From an uncultured Bacteroidales bacterium (GTDB lineage Bacteria; Bacteroidota; Bacteroidia; Bacteroidales; JBBRXJ01), in contig CAYMKE010000002.1 in NCBI GenBank assembly GCA_964390955.1, positions 1 to 43,321 of the forward strand: DNA of 43,321 nucleotides, read 5' to 3'. A model generated the notes under the pieces. It worked only from the letters and a program-made list of their open reading frames with translations, had not been told where the DNA came from and ran no database searches. Both the position numbers and the translations under genes were made by a program. Shown here piece by piece: positions 151 through 24,653 of this stretch; the stretch's first letter is position 1, and every line of letters starts with the position of its first letter.

Positions 151-1287
151 TTAATATCTGTATACAACTGCCATCTCTTTCCCGGGTTGTGGCATCTCTT
201 CCGGGTTTAACAAAATGATGTTACTATTATGCGTTAAAGCATTTATTGCTGTATAATTGATTAATTCAATATCCGAGGGTTGTTTATTCTCATGAATTTC
301 AACTTTATTATTCTCCTCATCAAAATAACCCCATAATTTAGTATTATAGTTCACATATAATTTTTCTGTCCTGCCCGCTACTGTATTTTTTAATATCTCT
401 TCGGGGATGTCTGATTTATTTTTTGTTTCATGATATTGTTTTATCGCTTCTTTTTTATCTTTCTCATAATAAGTTTTAAGAATATTCAAGGCCTGCTCCT
501 TTAATTCATGAGGAGTATGTCCTTTAGGGCTTTGTCTGATATGATCATTCGCTATAGTCTTATATGATGAAATATTTTTATATTTATAAAATATGTGATC
601 AACACATTCAATAATTAAAGGAATCCCTTTATTTTTGATAGCTTTCATAATTTCAGCATCCACATATCTTAAAAACTCTTCAATTTCTTTATTGTTTTCC
701 TCTGCTCCTCTGAACTGTCCCTGCTGTTTAATCCCTCCCTGAAGATGGGCTCCTTTATTCCGGAACATTTCATTTTTATAATTCTGCCATCCAAGAGCTG
801 TTTCTAATTTTTGAGGAATAAAATTTTCTATTTCTATTCTTGAAATATTATATTTATCGCCTTTATACAGATGAACTCCATGCAAACTCAAAGAAAGAAT
901 ATAATACGTTATGTTATTGTATGCTGTCTCAAGAAATGGCAATATATAAAATTCTTTTCCGACATACGTAAAGTTATTTTGTATTTTAGGAATCATATAA
1001 TATTCAAAAATGTTATTATTCAAAAATATAGCAAGCCCATCCCATGTTTGATATAACAAAAGAGCATCTGATAATAAATCATATGCCGGTGCTAAATAAT
1101 TATCAATATCTTTTTGTTGCATCCCTTTTTTCAGCAATTGTTTTTTTGCTTCTTTCAACTGATTACTTAATTTTTGAGCATTCGTTGCATCTTTAACCTC
1201 TTTAAATGAAGATATATATATTGATACTGAATACGGTTGTTTTTGTTGTACTAATTGTTTTAATGCTTCACTATTAATGTACTTCAT
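151..1287 (-). CDS. eRF1/Pelota-like protein (bacterial archaeo-eukaryotic release-factor-like, baeRF type), tentative
   Basis: 378-aa ATG ORF with no competing frame. It has an N-terminal 'PYSVSIYISS' strand. The central loop 'HLQGGIKQQGQFRG' (residues 181-194) lies where eRF1 carries its GGQ loop, and is followed by the helix 'EIEEFLRYVDAEI'. The C-terminus '...MAVVYRY' resembles the G-x-x-A-[IL]-L-R-[FY] tail of eRF1/Pelota domain 3. The assignment is from remembered family features, not a search. Confidence 0.5.
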   Translation of the reverse strand: MKYINSEALKQLVQQKQPYSVSIYISSFKEVKDATNAQKLSNQLKEAKKQLLKKGMQQKDIDNYLAPAYDLLSDALLLYQTWDGLAIFLNNNIFEYYMIPKIQNNFTYVGKEFYILPFLETAYNNITYYILSLSLHGVHLYKGDKYNISRIEIENFIPQKLETALGWQNYKNEMFRNKGAHLQGGIKQQGQFRGAEENNKEIEEFLRYVDAEIMKAIKNKGIPLIIECVDHIFYKYKNISSYKTIANDHIRQSPKGHTPHELKEQALNILKTYYEKDKKEAIKQYHETKNKSDIPEEILKNTVAGRTEKLYVNYNTKLWGYFDEENNKVEIHENKQPSDIELINYTAINALTHNSNIILLNPEEMPQPGKEMAVVYRY

Positions 1288-1330
1288 AATTTTATCTATT
1301 TATAATTAAATTTTTCAATGTTTGTATTTG

Positions 1331-2395
1331 TTATATTATTTTTAATATTTCTTCTCTTATTTGTTTTAACCCCTCGTTTATGTCTTTATTGACAGTTTCT
1401 AAAGGCAATTTTTTAATTGTGGCAATCTCTTGCCTGCTCATTTGTTCAAGCAAAAACAAATCGACAATATTATGTTTGGAAGGTGGCATTTTGGACATTT
1501 CCCTTTTGATAACCTGATCAATTTCTTTCCTGTTAATTGATGCATAAATACTGTTGATCTGCTCATCATCTACCACCCCGGTTAACACTTCGTCTATACC
1601 GTACATTTCAATTGTTTTATCTGTTCTCATGCCTTCCAACTCTTCATATGGCATCATTTTCCCTTCTGTATTGACACCATAATTTTCCCGCATTGATTCA
1701 TATTCTTTATCCACATATTCATCCAAATCAATGAATTCCTCATTTGCATTGATTTCTTCTTTCAATTTTTCTTTAAATACTTCATCTGCTTTTTGATAAA
1801 TCCAGGAGATGACATCCATATCTTCAGGTTTTGTATCAAAATGGTTATAAAGATTTAAATATAACTCATCGATAATATCTTTTGCATTAAACTCCCCTTT
1901 ATGGATATTCACTGTTTGTTCTGCAATAAATATCCGCCTTGATATATATGCCTCCAATCCCGGAAGCAGTGCTTCCAGTAATTTATTAAACGATAAAATA
2001 TCTTTTTCTGTCCTGATTTCATCTATCTGAGCTGCATAATCAATAATGGCATCAGACACCTTTTTTTTTCGCTGCGAAATTGTTTCTTTGCGTATGTTCC
2101 GTTGTTGACTGATGATTTTATTTTTCAACTCCTCAAATCCCCTGTTGACTGTTTTAATAACATCACTCCCACTGTCTTTAACATAAATCAATTTATCAGG
2201 CATATTAATGGTCATAGAAACGGATATACGGTCATTTTTAACTTCTGAAAAATGAATTTTTACTATGGCAGATTGGGGATGTATCACAAAATATTGATCA
2301 AGCTGTTTCGACTTTTCGTCCATCAATTGTAGTACTTCATTTTTTTCTACCGGGCTTAATATTTCAATATTTGAATATTCAAAATTCATAGGCAT
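1331..2395 (-). CDS. HPF/RaiA-like (S30AE fold) N-terminal domain fused to ECF-type sigma-70 regions 2 and 4
   Basis: 354-aa ORF, 43 nt upstream of the eRF1-like gene on the same strand. Residues ~3-100 ('SPVEKNEVLQLMDEKSKQLDQYF ... IVKIHFSEV ... ISVSMTINMPDKLIYVKDSGSDVIKTVNRGFEELKNKI') follow the HPF/YfiA beta-alpha-beta-beta-beta-alpha pattern. Residues ~135-212 ('LEAYISRRI ... AKDIIDELYLNLYNHF ... ISWIYQKADEVFKEKL') look like ECF sigma region 2. Residues ~305-352 ('IVDLFLLEQMSRQEIATIKKLPLETVNKDINEGLKQIREEIL') look like a region 4 HTH. Confidence 0.55.
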   Translation of the reverse strand: MPMNFEYSNIEILSPVEKNEVLQLMDEKSKQLDQYFVIHPQSAIVKIHFSEVKNDRISVSMTINMPDKLIYVKDSGSDVIKTVNRGFEELKNKIISQQRNIRKETISQRKKKVSDAIIDYAAQIDEIRTEKDILSFNKLLEALLPGLEAYISRRIFIAEQTVNIHKGEFNAKDIIDELYLNLYNHFDTKPEDMDVISWIYQKADEVFKEKLKEEINANEEFIDLDEYVDKEYESMRENYGVNTEGKMMPYEELEGMRTDKTIEMYGIDEVLTGVVDDEQINSIYASINRKEIDQVIKREMSKMPPSKHNIVDLFLLEQMSRQEIATIKKLPLETVNKDINEGLKQIREEILKII

Positions 2396-2607
2396 CTGTA
2401 TTTTTAAATATTTTCAATAAAAATTATTGCAATTAATATGCCATAAATACGATCCGGAAACAATAAATAAATTGATGGTTAATAAGGAATTCAGGGGGGC
2501 TGATGAGGAACTGCCCGATTTTAATTTACATCGTAAAAGCGACCATGTGTTTCTTAAAACACAATTCTTTAAATCTATCAACCATTTATTAGAATAGAGC
2601 CAAACAT

Positions 2608-3735
2608 TTATATCATTCCTTTGGTAGAGGGAAGTCCTCCTTTAAATACATCTCTTCTGACAGCCATCTTAATGGCCCTGCCCAATCCTTTAAAAATAGC
2701 TTCTATCTTATGATGTTCGTTTTCTCCTTCTGCTTTAATATTTAAATTGCATTTAGCGCCATCAGCAAATGATTTAAAAAAATGGGAAACCATTTCTGTG
2801 GGCATCTCCCCAATCTTTTCCCGTTTAAATACTGCATCCCATTCCAACCAGCTTCTTCCTCCGAAATCAAGTACTACTTGAGCAAGGGCATCATCCATGG
2901 GCAATACATATCCATAACGTTCTATTCCACGTTTGTCTCCAAGGGCTTTATGGAATGCTTCTCCAAGGGTAATGGCTGTATCTTCAATGGTATGATGTTT
3001 ATCTACATGCAAATCTCCTTTGACCTGAATGGATATATCTGCTCCCGAATGTCTTGCAATTTGTTCCAACATATGGTCAAAAAAACCGATCCCTGTTGAT
3101 ATATCAGCTTTGCCTGACCCATCCACCGTAACGTTTACGTTTATTTGGGTTTCTTTTGTTTTCCGGTTCACTTCAGCGCTACGCTCTGCATGAAATAAAT
3201 AATCACTGATTTCTTTCCAATGTTCGGTGATTAATACACAATGTTCGAGCAGCCCCTTTTCTATGAGTTCTTCTTTTAAATGTGGTTTATTCAACAAGAT
3301 GGCTTTGCTTCCCAAATTTTTAGCCAATTCCACATCGCTTATCCGGTCTCCTATTACAATGCTGTTGGCCAGGTCATAATCTCCCTCCATATACTTTTTA
3401 AGCAAGCCCGTACGGGGTTTGCGTGTAGGTGCATTATCTTTTTCCCATGAACTGTCAATCAATACATCATCAAATACAATGCCTTCATTGCCAAGCGCCT
3501 GTGTGATTTTGACCTGCACTTTATCAAACACATCTTTCGGATATTTTTCTGACCCCAGGCCATCCTGGTTGGAAACCATCACCAATTCATAATCCAATGC
3601 ATTGCTTATCAACTGTAAATATTTAAAAACATAAGGATAAAATTCCAATTCGTCAAGCGAGTTTATCTGAAACGTAATGGGTGGTTCTATCACCAAAGTA
3701 CCATCCCTGTCTAAAAACAATGCCTTTTTGCTCAT
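2608..3735 (-). CDS. hisB: bifunctional histidinol-phosphatase / imidazoleglycerol-phosphate dehydratase
   Basis: The HAD motif '[11 protein letters not shown]' follows directly after 'MSKK', matching the E. coli HisB N-terminus. IGPD motifs '[17 protein letters not shown]' and '[12 protein letters not shown]' are present. The track ORF starts at a TTG (3756), and I prefer the ATG at 3735. A minus-strand TACCTTTG -7 box overlaps the TTG. Confidence 0.93.
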
Positions 3736-3753
3736 TTGGTGTAATTTTTGTAA

Positions 3754-3761
3754 CAAAGGTA
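3754..3761 (-). promoter_or_regulatory. candidate Bacteroidota sigma-A -7 box (TACCTTTG) for hisB
   Basis: The minus-strand sequence matches TAnnTTTG. The G lies 18 nt upstream of the ATG at 3735. Confidence 0.35.
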
Positions 3762-3850
3762 GTAAAAAGGGATGAACTATTAAAAAATCAGCTAATGTGA
3801 AATCAGTTAAAAATTTATGATTTTATTACATCTAAATATATAGATATGTT

Positions 3851-3858
3851 TATATTTG
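3851..3858 (+). promoter_or_regulatory. candidate -7 box (TATATTTG) for the CoADR-fusion gene
   Basis: Matches TAnnTTTG, 26 nt upstream of the ATG at 3885. It is divergent from the hisB box. Confidence 0.4.
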
Positions 3859-3884
3859 TATTTTAAAATTAATCTTTATAAGCC

Positions 3885-6359
3885 ATGAAGAAAAAAATAT
3901 TGATAATAGGTGGTGTTGCCGGGGGAGCAACCACGGCAGCCCGGTTAAGAAGGCTTGACGAACAAGCGGAAATCATTTTATTAGAACGGGGAAAAGAAAT
4001 CTCATATGCCAATTGTGGCCTCCCATATTATATTGGAGATATCATTAAAGACCGGAACAAACTCCTGGTACAGACTCCCGAATCGTTTGGCACCCGGTTT
4101 AATATAGATGTAAGAGTACAAAATGAAGTGGTATTTATTCATCCTAAAGAAAAAAAGGTTGCGATATCTGATCATACTTCAGGTAAACAATATGAAGAAA
4201 CATATGATAAGCTGGTGCTTTCACCGGGAGCAGAACCGCTAAAACCCCCGATCCCGGGAATTAATCAGGAAGGGGTATTCACCCTGCGGAATGTCGCAGA
4301 TACAGATAATATCAAATCATTTATTGATGACCGGGCACCGAAAAGAGCCATTGTAGTCGGCGCCGGTTTTATTGGCCTGGAAATGGCAGAAAACCTGTAT
4401 CATAAAGGCATATTTGTGACCATTGTAGAAATGGCCGAACAAGTGATGACGCCACTGGATTATGAAATGGCAGCAGAAGTTCACCAACACCTGAAAACCA
4501 AACACGTGGAATTTTATCTTAAAGATGGTGTTTCATCATTTCAAAATGATGAACATAAGCTACAGGTAACACTAAACAGTGGCCGGAACCTGGAAGCAGA
4601 TATGGTAATCTTATCCATCGGTGTAAGGCCGGAAACACAACTTGCAAAAGAAGCCGGGCTGGAAATCGGAAACGCCGGGGGAATAAAAGTCAACAGCTAT
4701 TTGCAAACCTCAGACCCGGACATCTATGCCGTGGGAGATGCCATTGAATTTCCAAATCCGATTACAGGGAACAGTTACACTACATATTTAGCCGGGCCAG
4801 CCAACAAGCAGGGGCGCATTGTAGCCGGTAACATTGTACGGGGCAACCAAAAAGAATACACCGGAAGCATTGCCACCGCCATTGCCAAAGTATTTGACAT
4901 TACCGTGGCTTCCTGCGGATTATCTGAAAAGACACTCAAAAAAGAGGGGATCCCCTATCATGCTTCCATTACTCATGGCTCTTCACATGCCGGTTATTAC
5001 CCGGATGCATTTCCTCTTACCATAAAAATCCAATTCGACCCTGATAAAGGTACTCTATTTGGTGCTCAGATTGTGGGGTATGAAGGCGTTGATAAACGCA
5101 TTGACATGATCTCTACAGTGATTAAAAAGAATGGGACCATTTATGATCTCCAGGAAATAGAGCATGCTTATGCACCTCCTTATTCATCAGCGAAAGACCC
5201 GGCCAATATTGCAGGGTTTGCTGCTGAAAATATTTTGAATAACGATGTGAAAATTGTTCACTGGTATGAATTACAATCTTTGCAGGAACGGGAAATTTTT
5301 TTGTTGGATGTGAGAACCCGTGAAGAATTTGATCTGGATACCATAGATGGGGCTGTAAATATTCCTGTTGATGAACTCCGGAAAAGAATTGATGAGGTAC
5401 CTCAAAACAAAAAAGTTATTGTGTTCTGTAGTGTGGGATTACGTGGCTATGTTGCATGCAGGATACTCATGCAACATGACATTACTGAAGCATATAACCT
5501 GACCGGGGGGTATAAAACATACCAACATGCAACGCAAAAACAAAGCAATGAAGACATTTTTGAACGTGATACCATCGGCAAAGACGATCATATCTATCAA
5601 TACGACCCTGAATCATCCACTCCTCCCATCGAAACAAAAACCATTGATGTGGATGCCTGTGGATTACAATGCCCCGGCCCCATCATGAAACTCAAACAGG
5701 AGATGGACAAAATCAGCTATGGTGAAAAAATCAAAGAAACGGCAACAGACCCGGGATTTTATAAAGACGTTCGATCATGGGCTGCCATGACAGGAAATAA
5801 AGTCATTTCAATCGATCAAACCCAGGGGAAAGTGACGGCCGTGATTGAAAAACAAAAACCCAAAGAAAAACCGGCAACTGGCATGCAAAGCAACAACCAA
5901 ACTATGGTAGTGTTTAGTGATGACTTTGACAGGGCCCTGGCTTCATTCGTCATTGCAAACGGAGCTGCTTCAGCAGGCAAAAAAGTCACCATGTTTTTCA
6001 CATTTTGGGGGCTCAGTGTCATCAAGAAAAAAGACAAACCACGGGTAAAAAAAGACTTCATGGGCAGGATGTTTGGCATGATGCTGCCCTCCGGGAGCCA
6101 TAAACTCAAGCTTTCTTCGCTGAACATGTGGAACATGGGCCGGTGGATGATGAAAAAACGCATGAAGTCAAAACGCGTTGATTCATTGGAAACCATGATA
6201 CAACAAGCACTCGACAATGGAGTAGAACTCATTGCCTGCCAAATGTCTATGGACATCATGGGCATTAAAAAAGAAGAATTGCTTGATAATGTTAACATAG
6301 GAGGTGTGGCCACATATTTGCAGGTAGCCGATACTGCGAATGTGAATTTGTTTATTTAG
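3885..6359 (+). CDS. CoA-disulfide/persulfide reductase-like flavoprotein fused to rhodanese, TusA/SirA and DsrE-like domains
   Basis: 824 aa. FAD motif 'ILIIGGVAGGATTA'. Redox Cys 'SYANCGLPYY'. NAD motif 'AIVVGAGFIGLE'. Rhodanese active site 'VFCSVGLRG'. TusA motif 'CGLQCPGPIMKLK'. C-terminal ~160 aa is DsrE/DrsE-like ('VVFSDDFDRALASFVIANGAASAGKKVTMFFTFWG ... LIACQMSMD'). Confidence 0.85.
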   Translation: MKKKILIIGGVAGGATTAARLRRLDEQAEIILLERGKEISYANCGLPYYIGDIIKDRNKLLVQTPESFGTRFNIDVRVQNEVVFIHPKEKKVAISDHTSGKQYEETYDKLVLSPGAEPLKPPIPGINQEGVFTLRNVADTDNIKSFIDDRAPKRAIVVGAGFIGLEMAENLYHKGIFVTIVEMAEQVMTPLDYEMAAEVHQHLKTKHVEFYLKDGVSSFQNDEHKLQVTLNSGRNLEADMVILSIGVRPETQLAKEAGLEIGNAGGIKVNSYLQTSDPDIYAVGDAIEFPNPITGNSYTTYLAGPANKQGRIVAGNIVRGNQKEYTGSIATAIAKVFDITVASCGLSEKTLKKEGIPYHASITHGSSHAGYYPDAFPLTIKIQFDPDKGTLFGAQIVGYEGVDKRIDMISTVIKKNGTIYDLQEIEHAYAPPYSSAKDPANIAGFAAENILNNDVKIVHWYELQSLQEREIFLLDVRTREEFDLDTIDGAVNIPVDELRKRIDEVPQNKKVIVFCSVGLRGYVACRILMQHDITEAYNLTGGYKTYQHATQKQSNEDIFERDTIGKDDHIYQYDPESSTPPIETKTIDVDACGLQCPGPIMKLKQEMDKISYGEKIKETATDPGFYKDVRSWAAMTGNKVISIDQTQGKVTAVIEKQKPKEKPATGMQSNNQTMVVFSDDFDRALASFVIANGAASAGKKVTMFFTFWGLSVIKKKDKPRVKKDFMGRMFGMMLPSGSHKLKLSSLNMWNMGRWMMKKRMKSKRVDSLETMIQQALDNGVELIACQMSMDIMGIKKEELLDNVNIGGVATYLQVADTANVNLFI

Positions 6360-11240: not shown

Positions 11241-11765
11241 ATGGCATTCCTTGATTTGGCAAAACAACGGTATTCATCAAGAAAATACCAGGACAAACCT
11301 GTAGAAAAAGAAAAAATTAATTATGTGCTGGAAGCTGCACAAGCTGCCCCGTCAGCAAAGAATTTACAACCGATTCAATTGGTCGTGGCAACCGATAAAG
11401 AACAACTGGAAAAAGCACAAAGCTGTTATGGCCTGCCATGGATTAAAACAGCGCCTGTCATCATCATCGTTTGTGGTGACCATAGACAGGCTTGGCGGCG
11501 GGGCGACGGGAAAATCCACACAGACATTGATGCAGCCATTGCCATTGATCATATGACACTTGCAGCAACTGATGCAGGATTGGCTACCTGCTGGATTTGT
11601 AAATTTGATGCCCTGAAATGCAGCGAGCTGTTTGTTTTGCCTGAAGGCCTGGAACCCATTGCAATGCTTCCCCTGGGATACCCTGATGACCAACCAAACA
11701 CTGAACGGCATAACAAACGAAAGCCTCTCGATGAATTGGTTCATTGGAACACATTGAAAAAATAA
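11241..11765 (+). CDS. nitroreductase family protein
   Basis: 174 aa. N-terminus 'LDLAKQRYSSRKYQDKPVEKEKINYVLEAAQAAPSAKNLQP' is the classic nitroreductase opening (R-x-S-x-R ... P-S-x-x-N-x-Q-P). 'IAIDHMTLAATDAGLATCW' is consistent with the family core. Confidence 0.85.
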   Translation: MAFLDLAKQRYSSRKYQDKPVEKEKINYVLEAAQAAPSAKNLQPIQLVVATDKEQLEKAQSCYGLPWIKTAPVIIIVCGDHRQAWRRGDGKIHTDIDAAIAIDHMTLAATDAGLATCWICKFDALKCSELFVLPEGLEPIAMLPLGYPDDQPNTERHNKRKPLDELVHWNTLKK

Positions 11766-21503: not shown

Positions 21504-24500
21504 ATGAGATACAGAATTGTTCATGCTCTTATAGTTTTTTTTGTAAGTGTACTTATTGTCTTTTCACAAAATTACAATTTCACACATTATAATATTGAAG
21601 ACGGCCTTTGTCATAGATTCATATATACCATACATCAGGATAACGACGGGTATATGTGGCTGGGTACAGGGGAAGGCCTCTGTAAGTTTGACGGGATTAA
21701 ATTTTCAAGTGAAATAAAAGGTGATTCTATTTCTTCTGATTACATCACTTATAGTTATAAAGACAAGCAGGAGGGGATTTGGTTTGGACATAATGACGGA
21801 AGCATTTCTTTTTTTAAAAATGGTATCTTTCACAGGATCAATACAACCCCTTACTTTAAAAGCAAAGTAAATGCTATTACAGAAGATAATCAAAATAATA
21901 TTTATGCATTGTCTCAAAATGAGGGAATCGTTAAAATAAACAAACATCACGAAATACAAGTTATATCAACCGGGCTCAATAATATATTATTTTATTCTTT
22001 TGTATTATATAATAAAAATCAATTGTTATTAGGAACCAATGAGGGGTTATTCTTTGGAAATATCAATAATACCAACTTATTGGCACATAAAATAGATGAG
22101 TTTCCTTCAACAAAAATTACAAGTATAATCCCCTCCAAAACAATGGATGGTTTCTGGGTTGCAACCAGTACGGATGGATTGTATTTTGTTCGTAATATCA
22201 ATACAAAGCAAATTGAAGTAAACAATGTTGGAAATACATTAAATCTTGAAAATGTAAATATACAATACTTAACCCATGACAGGCATCATAATTTATGGAT
22301 AGCAACATTTGGCAATGGGGCATATAAAATGAGTTATTCAGAAAACGAAAAAAAATATGATCAAATAGTTCACTATAATCAGAGTAATGGATTGGGAAGT
22401 CAATATGTAAAACATATTTTTGAAGACAAGGAAGGCAATATATGGTTTGCAACATATGGATCGGGATTGGCAGGGTTGGTTATGAATGCCTATAAATTTT
22501 TTAATTATGAAGATCACCCCTTAAATAATAATGCTTTATCCATTGAAAAAAATGATAGCATTTATTGGATTGGAGGAGAAAAAGGGCTTTTAAAGGTTGT
22601 ATCACAGTCCGGTGGCGGATTTAAATATCTTTCTTTTGATAAAAAAAACGGACTGCCTGAAGACAGGATAATATCTTTGTATATTGATAAAGAAAATACT
22701 CTTTGGGTGGGAACCTCACAATATGGGCTATACAAAAAAGAACAAAACCAAAATTATTTTACACAATATTTTATTTCAAATAATTCATTAGCAAATAAAG
22801 TCACGGATATTACCGGAGATGATTCAACATTATATTGTGCAACACATAATGGAGTGTATGTTTTTAATACAAGAAATAATGAAAAAAAGCATTATAATAC
22901 TTTGAATGGCCTTCCTCACAATAAAATAAATGATATATGTAAAAAGGGAAATAATACTATTTATATTGCAACAAAAAGCAATGGCATTTATACTTTAAAC
23001 GGAGATGAAGCTTTCGCCCTTAAATCTAATGTTCAACTCGAATTTACATGCCTCACAATTGATCAAAATGGAGTATTATGGGCAGGAACATATGGCGACG
23101 GAGTGTTTAAATTTACCAGCGACTCATTGATCAATTATTCAACAAACAAAGGATTGAAATCAAATTATTGTTATAGTATTGGCCAGGATGCCAAAGAAAC
23201 TATTTGGGTTGGACATCGGTTGGGGTTGAGCAGAATCTATTCAAATCAGAAAATTGAACAATATGGGCCAAAAAAAGGGTTTAAAGGAGATTGCAATCCT
23301 AATGCCATCATTAAAGAAAATCCTCTTTTTTTTATTGGTACCAACCAGGGAATGATATGCATTAACAGTGATAAAGAACAGCCCAATAAAACCCCGCCCA
23401 ATACAAATATTATATCAGTTATTATAAATGATAAACCCTATGACCCGGCAGAATCCATTAAACTTCCTTATGGGTCGTATAAAGTTGATTTTAAATATAT
23501 TGGTGTCAATCTTACAGCCCCTGAAGATGTAACATATTCCTATAAATTAGATGGATTTGACCTTGGATGGAATCAGGCAGGCAATAATCGTATTGCTAAA
23601 TACAGCAGACTGGATGATGGGAATTATACGTTTTTGGTGAAATCATGTAATGAAAATGGAATCTGCAATACAGAACCAACAACCTTTAATTTAAAAATTA
23701 GTATACCATTTTGGAAAACATGGTGGTTTATATTGGGGGTAATCATCCTTTTAATTTTACTGGTCATACTTATCATTGCCATTCGAGAACGAAATCACCG
23801 GAAATTACAGGAATACCTCGAAACGCAATTGGACTTAAGGACTAAAGAAGTGCAGATGCAAAAAAAAGAACTTGAAATTAAAAACAAAAACATCACTGAC
23901 AGTATTAACTATGCCAGGAGAATACAATCGGGTATGCTTCCTTCGTTATCAAGGATTCATCAAACAGTAAAAGACGCTTTTGTATTTTACCTGCCACGTG
24001 ATATTGTAAGCGGTGATTTTTTCTGGTTTAATCAGAATAAAAACGGTGACTATATTATTGTATGTGCTGATTGTACCGGACATGGGGTGCCAGGGTCAAT
24101 GCTGTCAATGATAGGAATGACCCTGTTAAAAGATATTTGCAATCGAACCGATGTCAAAACCCCTTCTGATATTCTGTCTCACCTCGAAAAAGAGATACAA
24201 AATATTTTGAATCAAAACGAGGATACTCAATCCAATGATGGTATGGATATGACCATTGTCCAACTCAACCCGAAAACAAATAAAGCACTTATTTCTTCTG
24301 CAATGCAGACCTTTATCATTGTAAAAAACAATGAATTATTGAAATTAAAAGGTGAAAGCGTACCCATTGGTGGAGATCCTTTGATAAGAAAAAAAATGAA
24401 AAAAGATTTTAAAACAATGGAAATACAATTAAATGAACAAGATATTATTTATATGTTTTCCGATGGATTTGTTGACCAGTTTGGAGGGGAAAAAGAAGAT

Positions 24501-24653
24501 AAATTCAAAATAAGGCGAATGATGAGCCTTATAAGTGAAATACATCAAAAACCAATGAACGAACAAAAAATATTGATTGAGAAAAAATTTTATGCGTGGA
24601 AAGGAGATAACAGCCAGGTAGACGATATTTTATTTATGGGAATCAGGCTATAA
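21504..24653 (+). CDS. transmembrane sensor: periplasmic two-component-regulator propeller repeats plus Y_Y_Y domain, TM helix, cytoplasmic PP2C/SpoIIE phosphatase
   Basis: 1049 aa. Repeated 'D..G.(I/L)W(I/F/V)(G/A)T..G(L/V)' propeller blades. Y_Y_Y-like 'YSYKLDGFDLGWNQAGNNRIAKYSRLDDGNYTFLVKSCNENG'. TM helix 'WWFILGVIILLILLVILIIAI'. SpoIIE motifs 'SGDFFWF', 'DCTGHGVPGSMLSMIG', 'DGMDMTIV', 'FSDGFVDQFGG' and 'DDILFMGIRL'. Confidence 0.87.
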   Translation: MRYRIVHALIVFFVSVLIVFSQNYNFTHYNIEDGLCHRFIYTIHQDNDGYMWLGTGEGLCKFDGIKFSSEIKGDSISSDYITYSYKDKQEGIWFGHNDGSISFFKNGIFHRINTTPYFKSKVNAITEDNQNNIYALSQNEGIVKINKHHEIQVISTGLNNILFYSFVLYNKNQLLLGTNEGLFFGNINNTNLLAHKIDEFPSTKITSIIPSKTMDGFWVATSTDGLYFVRNINTKQIEVNNVGNTLNLENVNIQYLTHDRHHNLWIATFGNGAYKMSYSENEKKYDQIVHYNQSNGLGSQYVKHIFEDKEGNIWFATYGSGLAGLVMNAYKFFNYEDHPLNNNALSIEKNDSIYWIGGEKGLLKVVSQSGGGFKYLSFDKKNGLPEDRIISLYIDKENTLWVGTSQYGLYKKEQNQNYFTQYFISNNSLANKVTDITGDDSTLYCATHNGVYVFNTRNNEKKHYNTLNGLPHNKINDICKKGNNTIYIATKSNGIYTLNGDEAFALKSNVQLEFTCLTIDQNGVLWAGTYGDGVFKFTSDSLINYSTNKGLKSNYCYSIGQDAKETIWVGHRLGLSRIYSNQKIEQYGPKKGFKGDCNPNAIIKENPLFFIGTNQGMICINSDKEQPNKTPPNTNIISVIINDKPYDPAESIKLPYGSYKVDFKYIGVNLTAPEDVTYSYKLDGFDLGWNQAGNNRIAKYSRLDDGNYTFLVKSCNENGICNTEPTTFNLKISIPFWKTWWFILGVIILLILLVILIIAIRERNHRKLQEYLETQLDLRTKEVQMQKKELEIKNKNITDSINYARRIQSGMLPSLSRIHQTVKDAFVFYLPRDIVSGDFFWFNQNKNGDYIIVCADCTGHGVPGSMLSMIGMTLLKDICNRTDVKTPSDILSHLEKEIQNILNQNEDTQSNDGMDMTIVQLNPKTNKALISSAMQTFIIVKNNELLKLKGESVPIGGDPLIRKKMKKDFKTMEIQLNEQDIIYMFSDGFVDQFGGEKEDKFKIRRMMSLISEIHQKPMNEQKILIEKKFYAWKGDNSQVDDILFMGIRL

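Follow-up and report, generated by a model that had tools for sequence, protein, structure and literature searches.

An HPF–sigma-like fusion gene paired with a Balon-family gene in a Bacteroidales contig: a candidate ribosome-hibernation operon

At one end of the Bacteroidales contig CAYMKE010000002.1 lie two genes whose predicted products both resemble ribosome-binding factors. The first encodes a protein that joins an N-terminal domain of the HPF/RaiA fold to a module related to the extracytoplasmic function (ECF) sigma factors, and the second encodes a member of the Balon family, listed in Pfam as baeRF. The window that we analysed is this complete contig of 43,321 nucleotides (nt), part of a Bacteroidota metagenome-assembled genome. 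With moderate confidence, we read the locus as a stress-induced two-gene operon for ribosome hibernation, in which the sigma-like tail of the fusion protein would serve mainly as a protein-interaction or regulatory module. Recent reports, discussed below, already contain both the pairing and the fusion. New here are the degenerate recognition helix of the sigma-like module, a class of homologues without the HPF domain, the stress-gene and plasmid context of the family, an upstream motif of the -24/-12 type, and the limits of the adjacency to Balon.

The two genes are co-directional on the minus strand, and 212 nt separate the fusion gene from the stop codon of hisB. The gap of 43 nt between the genes, the distance to hisB, the 150 nt left beyond the Balon-family gene and the positions of the open reading frames (ORFs) had all been given in an earlier account of this DNA (the original prediction), and our reading of the ORFs reproduced them. 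Because the 43-nt spacer holds no terminator-like site, the two genes probably form a single transcript. The fusion gene probably starts at its second ATG, at position 2389, since the database copy begins there and 95% of the homologues place their first methionine at M3 of the 354-residue ORF. The features of the module are as follows.

1331..2395, minus strand: fusion gene (HPF–sigma-like), 354 amino acids (aa); probable true start at 2389, giving 352 aa
2102..2386, minus strand: HPF/RaiA-type N-terminal domain, aa 4-98, beta-alpha-beta-beta-beta-alpha, assigned by profile and fold
2009..2101, minus strand: basic helical extension of HPF helix alpha-2, or linker, aa 99-129, as seen in the predicted structure
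1742..2008, minus strand: sigma region 2-like domain, aa 130-218, assigned by TIGR02937 and by profile alignment to region 2 of AlgU, SigW and sigmaE
1532..1741, minus strand: acidic insert, aa 219-288, net charge -15, partly of low confidence in the predicted structure
1334..1531, minus strand: sigma region 4-like helix-turn-helix, aa 289-354, with a non-basic recognition helix
1288..1330, minus strand: intergenic spacer of 43 nt, free of terminator-like sites
151..1287, minus strand: Balon-family (baeRF) gene, 378 aa
2428..2443, minus strand: -24/-12 promoter-like motif TGGCATATTAATTGCA, 33 nt upstream of the ATG at 2395

The two proteins and their nearest relatives

The RaiA/HPF fold plugs the decoding and mRNA channel of the 30S subunit. 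Profile comparison and structure prediction both identify a domain of this fold at the N-terminus of the fusion protein. A family profile of the N-terminal 135 residues matched HPFs in the PDB (8uu4_w, 2.5e-5; 6qbz_A, 6e-5; 5nd8_v, 1.2e-4), and the Pfam model PF02482 was matched by 19 of the 65 family members of full length (the long class defined below). The AlphaFold2 (AF2) model of the fusion protein is of good quality (mean local confidence, pLDDT, 89.6; predicted template modelling score, pTM, 0.81), and a Foldseek search with it found ECF sigma factors as well as N-terminal domains of HPFs. The N-terminal domain superposed on the ribosome-bound HPF 8uu7_w with a template modelling (TM) score of 0.73, normalised to the target; 2ywq, 3tqm, protein Y in 4v4g, 6h4n and mycobacterial RafH (8wi7_w) were also matched. 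The secondary structure of the model fits HPF over residues 4-119. The model shows helices at 79-119 and 121-129, so that the last helix of the domain runs on into the linker; the net charge of the linker is +2 in this protein, with a family median of +3.

The C-terminal dimerisation domain of long HPF, which is involved in 100S formation, is not present in the fusion protein; residues 130-354 form the sigma-like module instead. In its general plan the protein resembles long HPF, RafH and the archaeal HibA with its CBS domains (PMC13324472), all of which likewise join an HPF N-terminal domain and a linker to a different C-terminal module. It differs from them in the nature of that module, which is an ECF-sigma-like two-domain unit and not a dimerisation, duplicated or CBS domain. 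Closer in architecture are the HPF isoforms of a 2025 preprint that carry a Csp, SigE or CBS domain in place of the usual C-terminal one; the SigE–HPF chimeras among them lack the long-HPF C-terminal domain and are frequently adjacent to Balon (10.1101/2025.11.04.686544). The window protein has the same architecture, with a SigE-like domain in place of the dimerisation domain, and the same neighbour, and the patchy, probably horizontal distribution of the chimeras and their presence on plasmids also match the family that we describe. The preprint offers neither a mechanism nor experiments for the SigE chimera, and the parts of it consulted make no mention of a degenerate recognition helix, of a short class without HPF or of a -24/-12 motif. 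Our literature search found no paper that tests an HPF–sigma-like chimera.

The downstream protein of 378 aa is assigned to the Balon family by sequence and by its predicted structure. In Pfam it matches baeRF_family7 (4e-30), baeRF_family3 (4e-29) and families 6, 8 and 11, all above threshold. The NCBIfam model NF052287 ('AOC03_06830 family ribosome hibernation factor') aligns over its full length at 6e-27, with 95 bits against an equivalog cut-off of 330; as judged from these scores, the protein is a Balon homologue and, by the NCBI standard, not an equivalog. A profile of ten relatives, compared with the PDB, had as its sole match chain B of 8rd8, 8rdv and 8rdw (2.3e-29, full length), which is Balon of Psychrobacter urativorans. 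The AF2 model (pLDDT 81) shows a three-domain aeRF1-like fold, to which the solved Balon structures are closest: Foldseek returned 8rd8_B (5e-19), 8rdw_B and 8rdv_B (E ~1e-18, TM 0.68-0.73) and mycobacterial Msmeg1130 (TM 0.72), with aRF1/eRF1 at TM 0.25-0.48 and Pelota at 0.19-0.36. Balon itself has an HP motif that contacts the decoding centre, a bL27 trap and a beta-hairpin that binds EF-Tu; the model of the window protein shows a hairpin in the C-domain (strands 319-323 and 328-332).

Neither the GGQ motif of peptide release nor the NIKS motif of stop-codon recognition occurs in this protein. The corresponding loop reads QGGIKQQGQ, and the GGQ tripeptide appears sporadically in three relatives, in a column that is not conserved. 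The stretch that aligns to THREHPAND of Balon is SSFKEVKDA, and distant relatives retain PTHR, although the placement of this motif is uncertain. The protein is thus much like the characterised members (AOC03_06830 of P. urativorans; Msmeg1130/Rv2629; PDB 8rd8, 8rdv, 8rdw and 8v9j-l) in its full-length alignment, its TM of ~0.7 and its lack of GGQ and NIKS. It differs in an identity of only 12-16% in the structural alignments and in having an HPF partner that bears a sigma-like tail.

The original prediction had read the upstream ORF as an HPF fold joined to sigma regions 2 and 4 and the downstream ORF as a member of the eRF1/Pelota superfamily of the baeRF type. Both readings held up, the first on TIGR02937, the match of the family profile to HPFs in the PDB, and Foldseek, and the second on the Pfam baeRF models, the profile match to 8rd8_B, and Foldseek. 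Its remark that the baeRF families have no assigned function is out of date: Balon was characterised experimentally in 2024 as a hibernation factor that enters the A site together with EF-Tu and is able to sit on one ribosome with RaiA (PMC10901736). Balon genes adjoin raiA 'most frequently', and are also found next to genes for alternative sigma70 factors, Hsp20, DnaK/J, HdeD and OsmC/Y (PMC10901736); a baeRF–HPF neighbourhood had been reported in 2019 (PMC6514570). The window copy, adjacent to a gene with an HPF/RaiA domain, is in the commonest Balon context. Likewise out of date is the novelty implied by the original prediction, whose author knew of no characterised example: the Balon–RaiA adjacency (PMC10901736) and the SigE–HPF chimeras of the preprint (10.1101/2025.11.04.686544) are both on record.

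The sigma-like module

The sigma-like part of the fusion protein is, on its profile matches and predicted fold, a real ECF homologue. The protein passes the general sigma70-ECF model TIGR02937 with 48.6 bits against a cut-off of 42.9, and it falls marginally under threshold for Pfam Sigma70_r4 and Sigma70_r4_2. Among the 65 long-class members, Sigma70_r4_2 was matched by 42 and Sigma70_r2 by 11. The profile of the short class aligned to AlgU (6e-15), SigW, sigmaE and SigH in the PDB over both region 2 and region 4, and Foldseek matched this part of the model to 1or7, 6in7, 5wuq and 5uxx, and to region 4 of sigmaE (2h27) with a TM of 0.87. The fold and hydrophobic core are retained (LP...R, EIA and W198, the last 95% conserved), as is the DE pair at 176-177. 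The protein thus has the region 2 plus region 4 architecture in common with the group IV factors sigmaE, AlgU, SigW and SigH, and both regions are recognisable by sequence as well as fold. It is set apart from them by its HPF domain, by an acidic insert of 70 aa and by the loss of the basic residues of the recognition helix.

The recognition helix of region 4.2 reads V-R/K-S/T-R-I-F/H-R-A/G-R in AlgU, sigmaE and SigW, as against V-N-K-D-I-N-E-G-L in the window protein. In sigmaE, R171, R173 and R176 are the residues that we take, from the 2H27 structure, to contact the -35 element. The positions aligned to them are N336, D338 and E341 in the window protein; across the family the three columns are variable and mostly E, I/T and E, that is, acidic or aliphatic, and the net charge of the helix has a family median of 0. 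A basic recognition helix is accordingly missing from the window protein. The linker between the two regions, short in ECF sigma factors, is replaced by an insert of ~70 aa with a net charge of -15, a value that holds for the window protein and is also the family median. The insert has no counterpart in canonical ECF sigma factors, and its family consensus includes a DAxGxxxxxEELDD-type motif.

These properties bear on an alternative that goes back to the original prediction, namely that the fusion protein is a working ECF sigma factor gated by the ribosome. According to this model, the HPF domain would dock the protein on vacant or hibernating ribosomes, or release it from them, and ribosome occupancy would in this way set the activity of a stress regulon that includes Balon, Hsp20, YfdX and DnaJ. 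The score against TIGR02937, the alignment of regions 2 and 4 to solved ECF sigma factors and the matching fold all speak for it; so do the facts that conservation within the family is highest in the sigma-like part, that stress genes adjoin the family as targets usually adjoin ECF sigma genes, and that homologues are annotated in their sources as sigma-70 family sigma factors. Against it stand the three positions that should contact the -35 element, now N, D and E, and the acidic insert in place of the short linker. No gene for a cognate anti-sigma-like protein was seen next to the fusion gene or at any other locus examined, and no autoregulatory -35/-10 promoter of the ECF type was found; the only shared upstream motif has -24/-12 geometry, with no further element ~17 bp away. 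In two relatives, moreover, the fusion gene is disrupted or truncated and the Balon gene intact. A classical promoter-specific sigma factor is less likely because the DNA-reading residues are unconserved, the insert is acidic, an anti-sigma gene is lacking and the upstream motif is of the sigma-54 type. Overall, we consider a ribosome-gated sigma factor rather unlikely.

A degenerate DNA-reading surface on a sigma-like fold is also known from PhyR, an anti-anti-sigma mimic that acts in the general stress response of alphaproteobacteria. By analogy, the module may be a mimic or decoy that does not bind DNA and instead titrates an anti-sigma-like partner or the core of RNA polymerase, and so couples hibernation to a change or shutdown of transcription. 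In either length class, 9 of the 65 members match the Pfam PhyR sigma-like domain, at best with 2e-10, and the family profile also matches PhyR structures. The predicted structure, which is compact (its pTM being that given above), superposes best on the closed, anti-sigma-bound forms of ECF factors, with TM-scores of 0.70 for EcfG/NepR (5uxx) and 0.67 for SigW/RsiW (5wuq). The comparison is weakened by the window locus itself: the protein has no receiver domain, no NepR-like or other anti-sigma gene lies nearby, and the protein has no match to the PhyR model PF22233 at E <= 1. The matches to real ECF sigma factors are also much stronger than those to PhyR. A PhyR-like decoy thus appears to us quite improbable.

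A further possibility keeps the interaction role that we favour and specifies its partner. The tail may bind the core of RNA polymerase without reading promoters, in which case the chimera would tether or sequester polymerase on ribosomes silenced by Balon and HPF; in a version closer to the original prediction, ribosome occupancy would decide when an active sigma factor is set free. In both cases the chimera would form a direct protein bridge from translation shutdown to the shutdown or reprogramming of transcription during dormancy. In this specific form we regard the idea as unlikely.

Family, synteny and stress context

An exhaustive HMMER search with the fusion protein found homologues in 227 clusters at 50% identity (E <= 1e-3), as against 2 matches in a word-indexed protein search. 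The family falls into two length classes. Members of the long class, of ~350 aa, align over the full length, and those of the short class, of ~250 aa (P0030-P0159), begin their alignment at query residues ~105-135. The short proteins have no HPF domain and consist of the sigma-like module, including the acidic insert and, at the N-terminus, the basic helix of the linker segment described above. In a Rosetta-stone comparison, no free-standing HPF gene was found beside these HPF-less short-class genes. The counts of gene context that follow are based on ~15 independent loci, which we denote by L numbers; a genome scan with a narrower alignment gave 2 loci, and a metagenome scan gave 5.

The pair of fusion gene and Balon gene is kept in the window's own subfamily (L001, L003 and L004-L006), in wider flanks that differ each time. 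In L003, a fusion orthologue of 352 aa (43% identity) is followed by a Balon gene (49% identity), and in GCA_964549265.1 (L001/L031) the two products share 74% and 70% identity with those of the window. In the latter genome a mobile element splits the fusion gene, the closest orthologue known to us, right after the HPF domain, at about residue 100 (L031 2081-2142, L001 1-62). The element is flanked on both sides by an 8-bp target duplication, CAGGTTCG, and ends in imperfect terminal inverted repeats, GGATCAGTAGAAGATTAGGGTGG / GGATCAATGAAAGATTCGGGTTGG; the split leaves two ORFs, a free-standing HPF-like one of 102 aa and a sigma-like one of 217 aa. In GCA_054919355.1 (L004 1-847, and likewise L005 and L006), the fusion gene is reduced to its last 180 codons in front of an intact Balon gene, the sequence upstream of this remnant is full of stops, and three assemblies break nearby. 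The split orthologue and the remnant, each beside an intact Balon gene, suggest that the fusion gene is dispensable, or is often lost while Balon is kept.

Outside this subfamily the adjacency breaks down. Upstream of the more distant Balon homologues, at 37% and 30% identity, lie different genes, and no Balon gene occurs within 5 kb of any of the more distant fusion-family members (L011-L028), some of whose contigs are very short and carry little weight in this respect. The expectation that the pair is conserved across Bacteroidota is thus borne out for the close relatives and fails for the distant ones. Since Balon is absent from the vicinity of the distant members, the fusion family as a whole is independent of it. 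As a separate observation, the Balon homologue of 30% identity (L008-L010, 4163-6164) is preceded, at a gap of 8 nt, by a gene whose product has a weak Pfam match to the PRC-barrel and not to HPF; this partner was not found among those named in the Balon and baeRF literature searched.

The genes around the family concern proteostasis and stress throughout. Next to distant members we find genes for Hsp20 (L014, L015-18, L019, L027), HtrA (L019, L020), YfdX (L019, L021) and DnaJ/CbpA (L019, L025, L027), and OsmC and Usp accompany the member in L025. The short-class loci L025 and L027 show the same tendency, with DnaJ/CbpA-MerR_2, Hsp20, thioredoxin-like, OsmC and Usp genes as neighbours. Some members are named 'sigma24 family protein/ribosome-associated ...' in IMG.

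A homologue of the fusion protein is also encoded on plasmids of alpha- and betaproteobacteria, where it is matched by both halves of the Bacteroidota family hidden Markov models. A tblastn search located it on 31 such plasmids, many of the matches overlapping an annotated HdeD gene; its annotation varies between sigma-70 family factor, FliA and hypothetical protein. On pOANT01 of Brucella anthropi (L030, NC_009669.1 6046-18819), the homologue has 390 aa and matches PF02482 above threshold. The genes there run Hsp20, MarR, FtsH, ClpK-like AAA+, fusion gene, HdeD, YfdX1 and YfdX2, a content from which the island may be read as a heat-resistance island of the locus of heat resistance/transmissible locus of stress tolerance (LHR/tLST) type. 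Such islands carry sHsp20, ClpK/ClpG, FtsH, YfdX1/2 and HdeD, and that on pOANT01 has a homologous fusion gene inside it; the window copy differs in being paired with Balon beside hisB, outside any island of this kind. On a Paraburkholderia plasmid (L029), the homologue lies ~2.5 kb from three Hsp20 genes and scores marginally under the PF02482 threshold. A DNA similarity search with the Brucella homologue, aimed at pEc78, the E. coli example named in the preprint, gave no match in 5,426 E. coli genomes.

The window locus itself may have been acquired horizontally. The G+C content of the two-gene module is 0.27-0.33, against 0.38-0.46 for hisB and the genes that follow (positions 1-2500 and 2500-6000, respectively), and in each of the four close relatives the two genes are found close to the end of a contig or right at it, in differing flanks. 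Both properties are consistent with such an origin. The same properties, together with the insertion element in one orthologue and an earlier proposal that the baeRF families answer ribosome-targeting conflicts (PMC6514570), can be read in favour of a conflict, defence or toxin-antitoxin-like cassette that targets translation and travels on mobile DNA, an alternative that the original prediction had offered. The rest of the evidence points away from it. PADLOC matched neither protein, no nuclease, toxin or NTPase domain is present, chaperone, protease and stress-protein genes surround the family, and Balon itself is experimentally a hibernation factor (PMC10901736). We regard a conflict cassette as very improbable indeed.

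Upstream of the module lies one gene that concerns us here as a neighbour.

2608..3756, minus strand: hisB, with Pfam IGPD and HAD phosphatase domains

Divergent from hisB, at 3885-6359 on the plus strand, is a gene for an 824-aa protein that combines a CoA-disulfide-reductase-like pyridine nucleotide-disulfide oxidoreductase with rhodanese, TusA and DsrE-like domains, a large sulfur-transfer fusion. An ORF at 11241-11765 that had been considered as an ECF sigma factor is rejected, as it encodes a nitroreductase. The Rfam search of the window returned one tRNA only.

The upstream motif and a model for the operon

The motif upstream of the fusion gene, TGGCATATTAATTGCA, departs from the sigma-54 consensus TGGCAC-N5-TTGCW at a single position and has both the -24/-12 geometry, with GG and GC one helical turn apart, and the position expected of a sigma-54 promoter. 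The strict pattern TGGCAYN5TTGC occurs 2 times in the window, where 0.21 are expected. The second occurrence, at 23293-23307 on the minus strand, is antisense within the gene for a 1049-aa Reg_prop/Y_Y_Y/SpoIIE regulator (21504-24653) and is probably due to chance. In the 365 kb of fetched loci the strict pattern occurs 4 times, twice upstream of fusion genes (in the window and at L003 3758-3773), and a 16-mer identical to that of the window precedes the orthologue in GCA_964549265.1 (L031 1728-1743).

A relaxed form, TGGYATAT-N2-TTTGAW, has 20 matches, ~15 of them in promoter position. It lies upstream of fusion genes in L011, L014, L015, L021 and L022, of hsp20 in L014, L015, L019 and L027, of yfdX in L021, and of three further genes in L011, L022 and L027. 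No second conserved element was found near the -24/-12 motif at ~17 bp, and TAnnTTTG, the -7 element of Bacteroidota housekeeping promoters, does not occur upstream of any gene examined. We conclude from the motif matches that a sigma-54-type promoter probably drives the operon, and the sharing of the motif suggests a lineage-specific stress regulon of the sigma-54 type in these Bacteroidota. To our knowledge, a regulatory circuit for heat shock or stationary phase has not been well described in this phylum.

How the parts may work together can be sketched by analogy with known hibernation factors. A sigma-54-type promoter would drive the operon, and a related motif would serve hsp20 and yfdX beside the homologous fusion genes of relatives. 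On the pattern of 'state 1' in the Balon study, the Balon-family protein would occupy the ribosomal A site while the chimera would reach into the decoding channel with its HPF domain. Balon and RaiA are known to bind one ribosome simultaneously, so joint action of the two products on a single ribosome is most likely. In the chimera, the ECF-sigma-like module, made up of region 2, the acidic insert and region 4, would stand in place of the dimerisation domain of long HPF. The tail would then offer an interaction surface, for which the core of RNA polymerase is the obvious candidate, or another partner may be bound.

Several observations weigh against this view of the locus as a hibernation operon. 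Taken alone, the window fusion protein has no match to Pfam PF02482, and the Balon-like protein is far under the NCBIfam equivalog cut-off; the decoding-centre 'HP motif' of Balon may not be conserved in it. The absence of Balon within 5 kb of every more distant family member limits the argument from adjacency. The sigma-like module is conserved as well as the HPF domain or better, and the window protein passes the general ECF model, which leaves a true sigma function some probability. As to the promoter, the -12 position is A instead of C in many relatives, and the -24/-12 motif is missing from the proteobacterial plasmid and Chitinophagales loci and from L012, L013, L020 and L025.

How bacteria come through starvation, cold and antibiotic treatment is determined by ribosome hibernation. 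Among its factors, Balon and the chimeric HPFs are recent additions, and their biology has barely been explored outside Psychrobacter and mycobacteria. The locus described here is a clean Bacteroidota case in which Balon and a chimeric HPF are encoded together, and it points to a widespread family of at least 227 clusters at 50% identity. The interest that remains lies in the role of a sigma-like module on a ribosome-binding protein and in the possible sigma-54 stress regulon. If the module does contact RNA polymerase, the family would tie the dormancy of the ribosome directly to that of RNA polymerase, the other central machine of gene expression.

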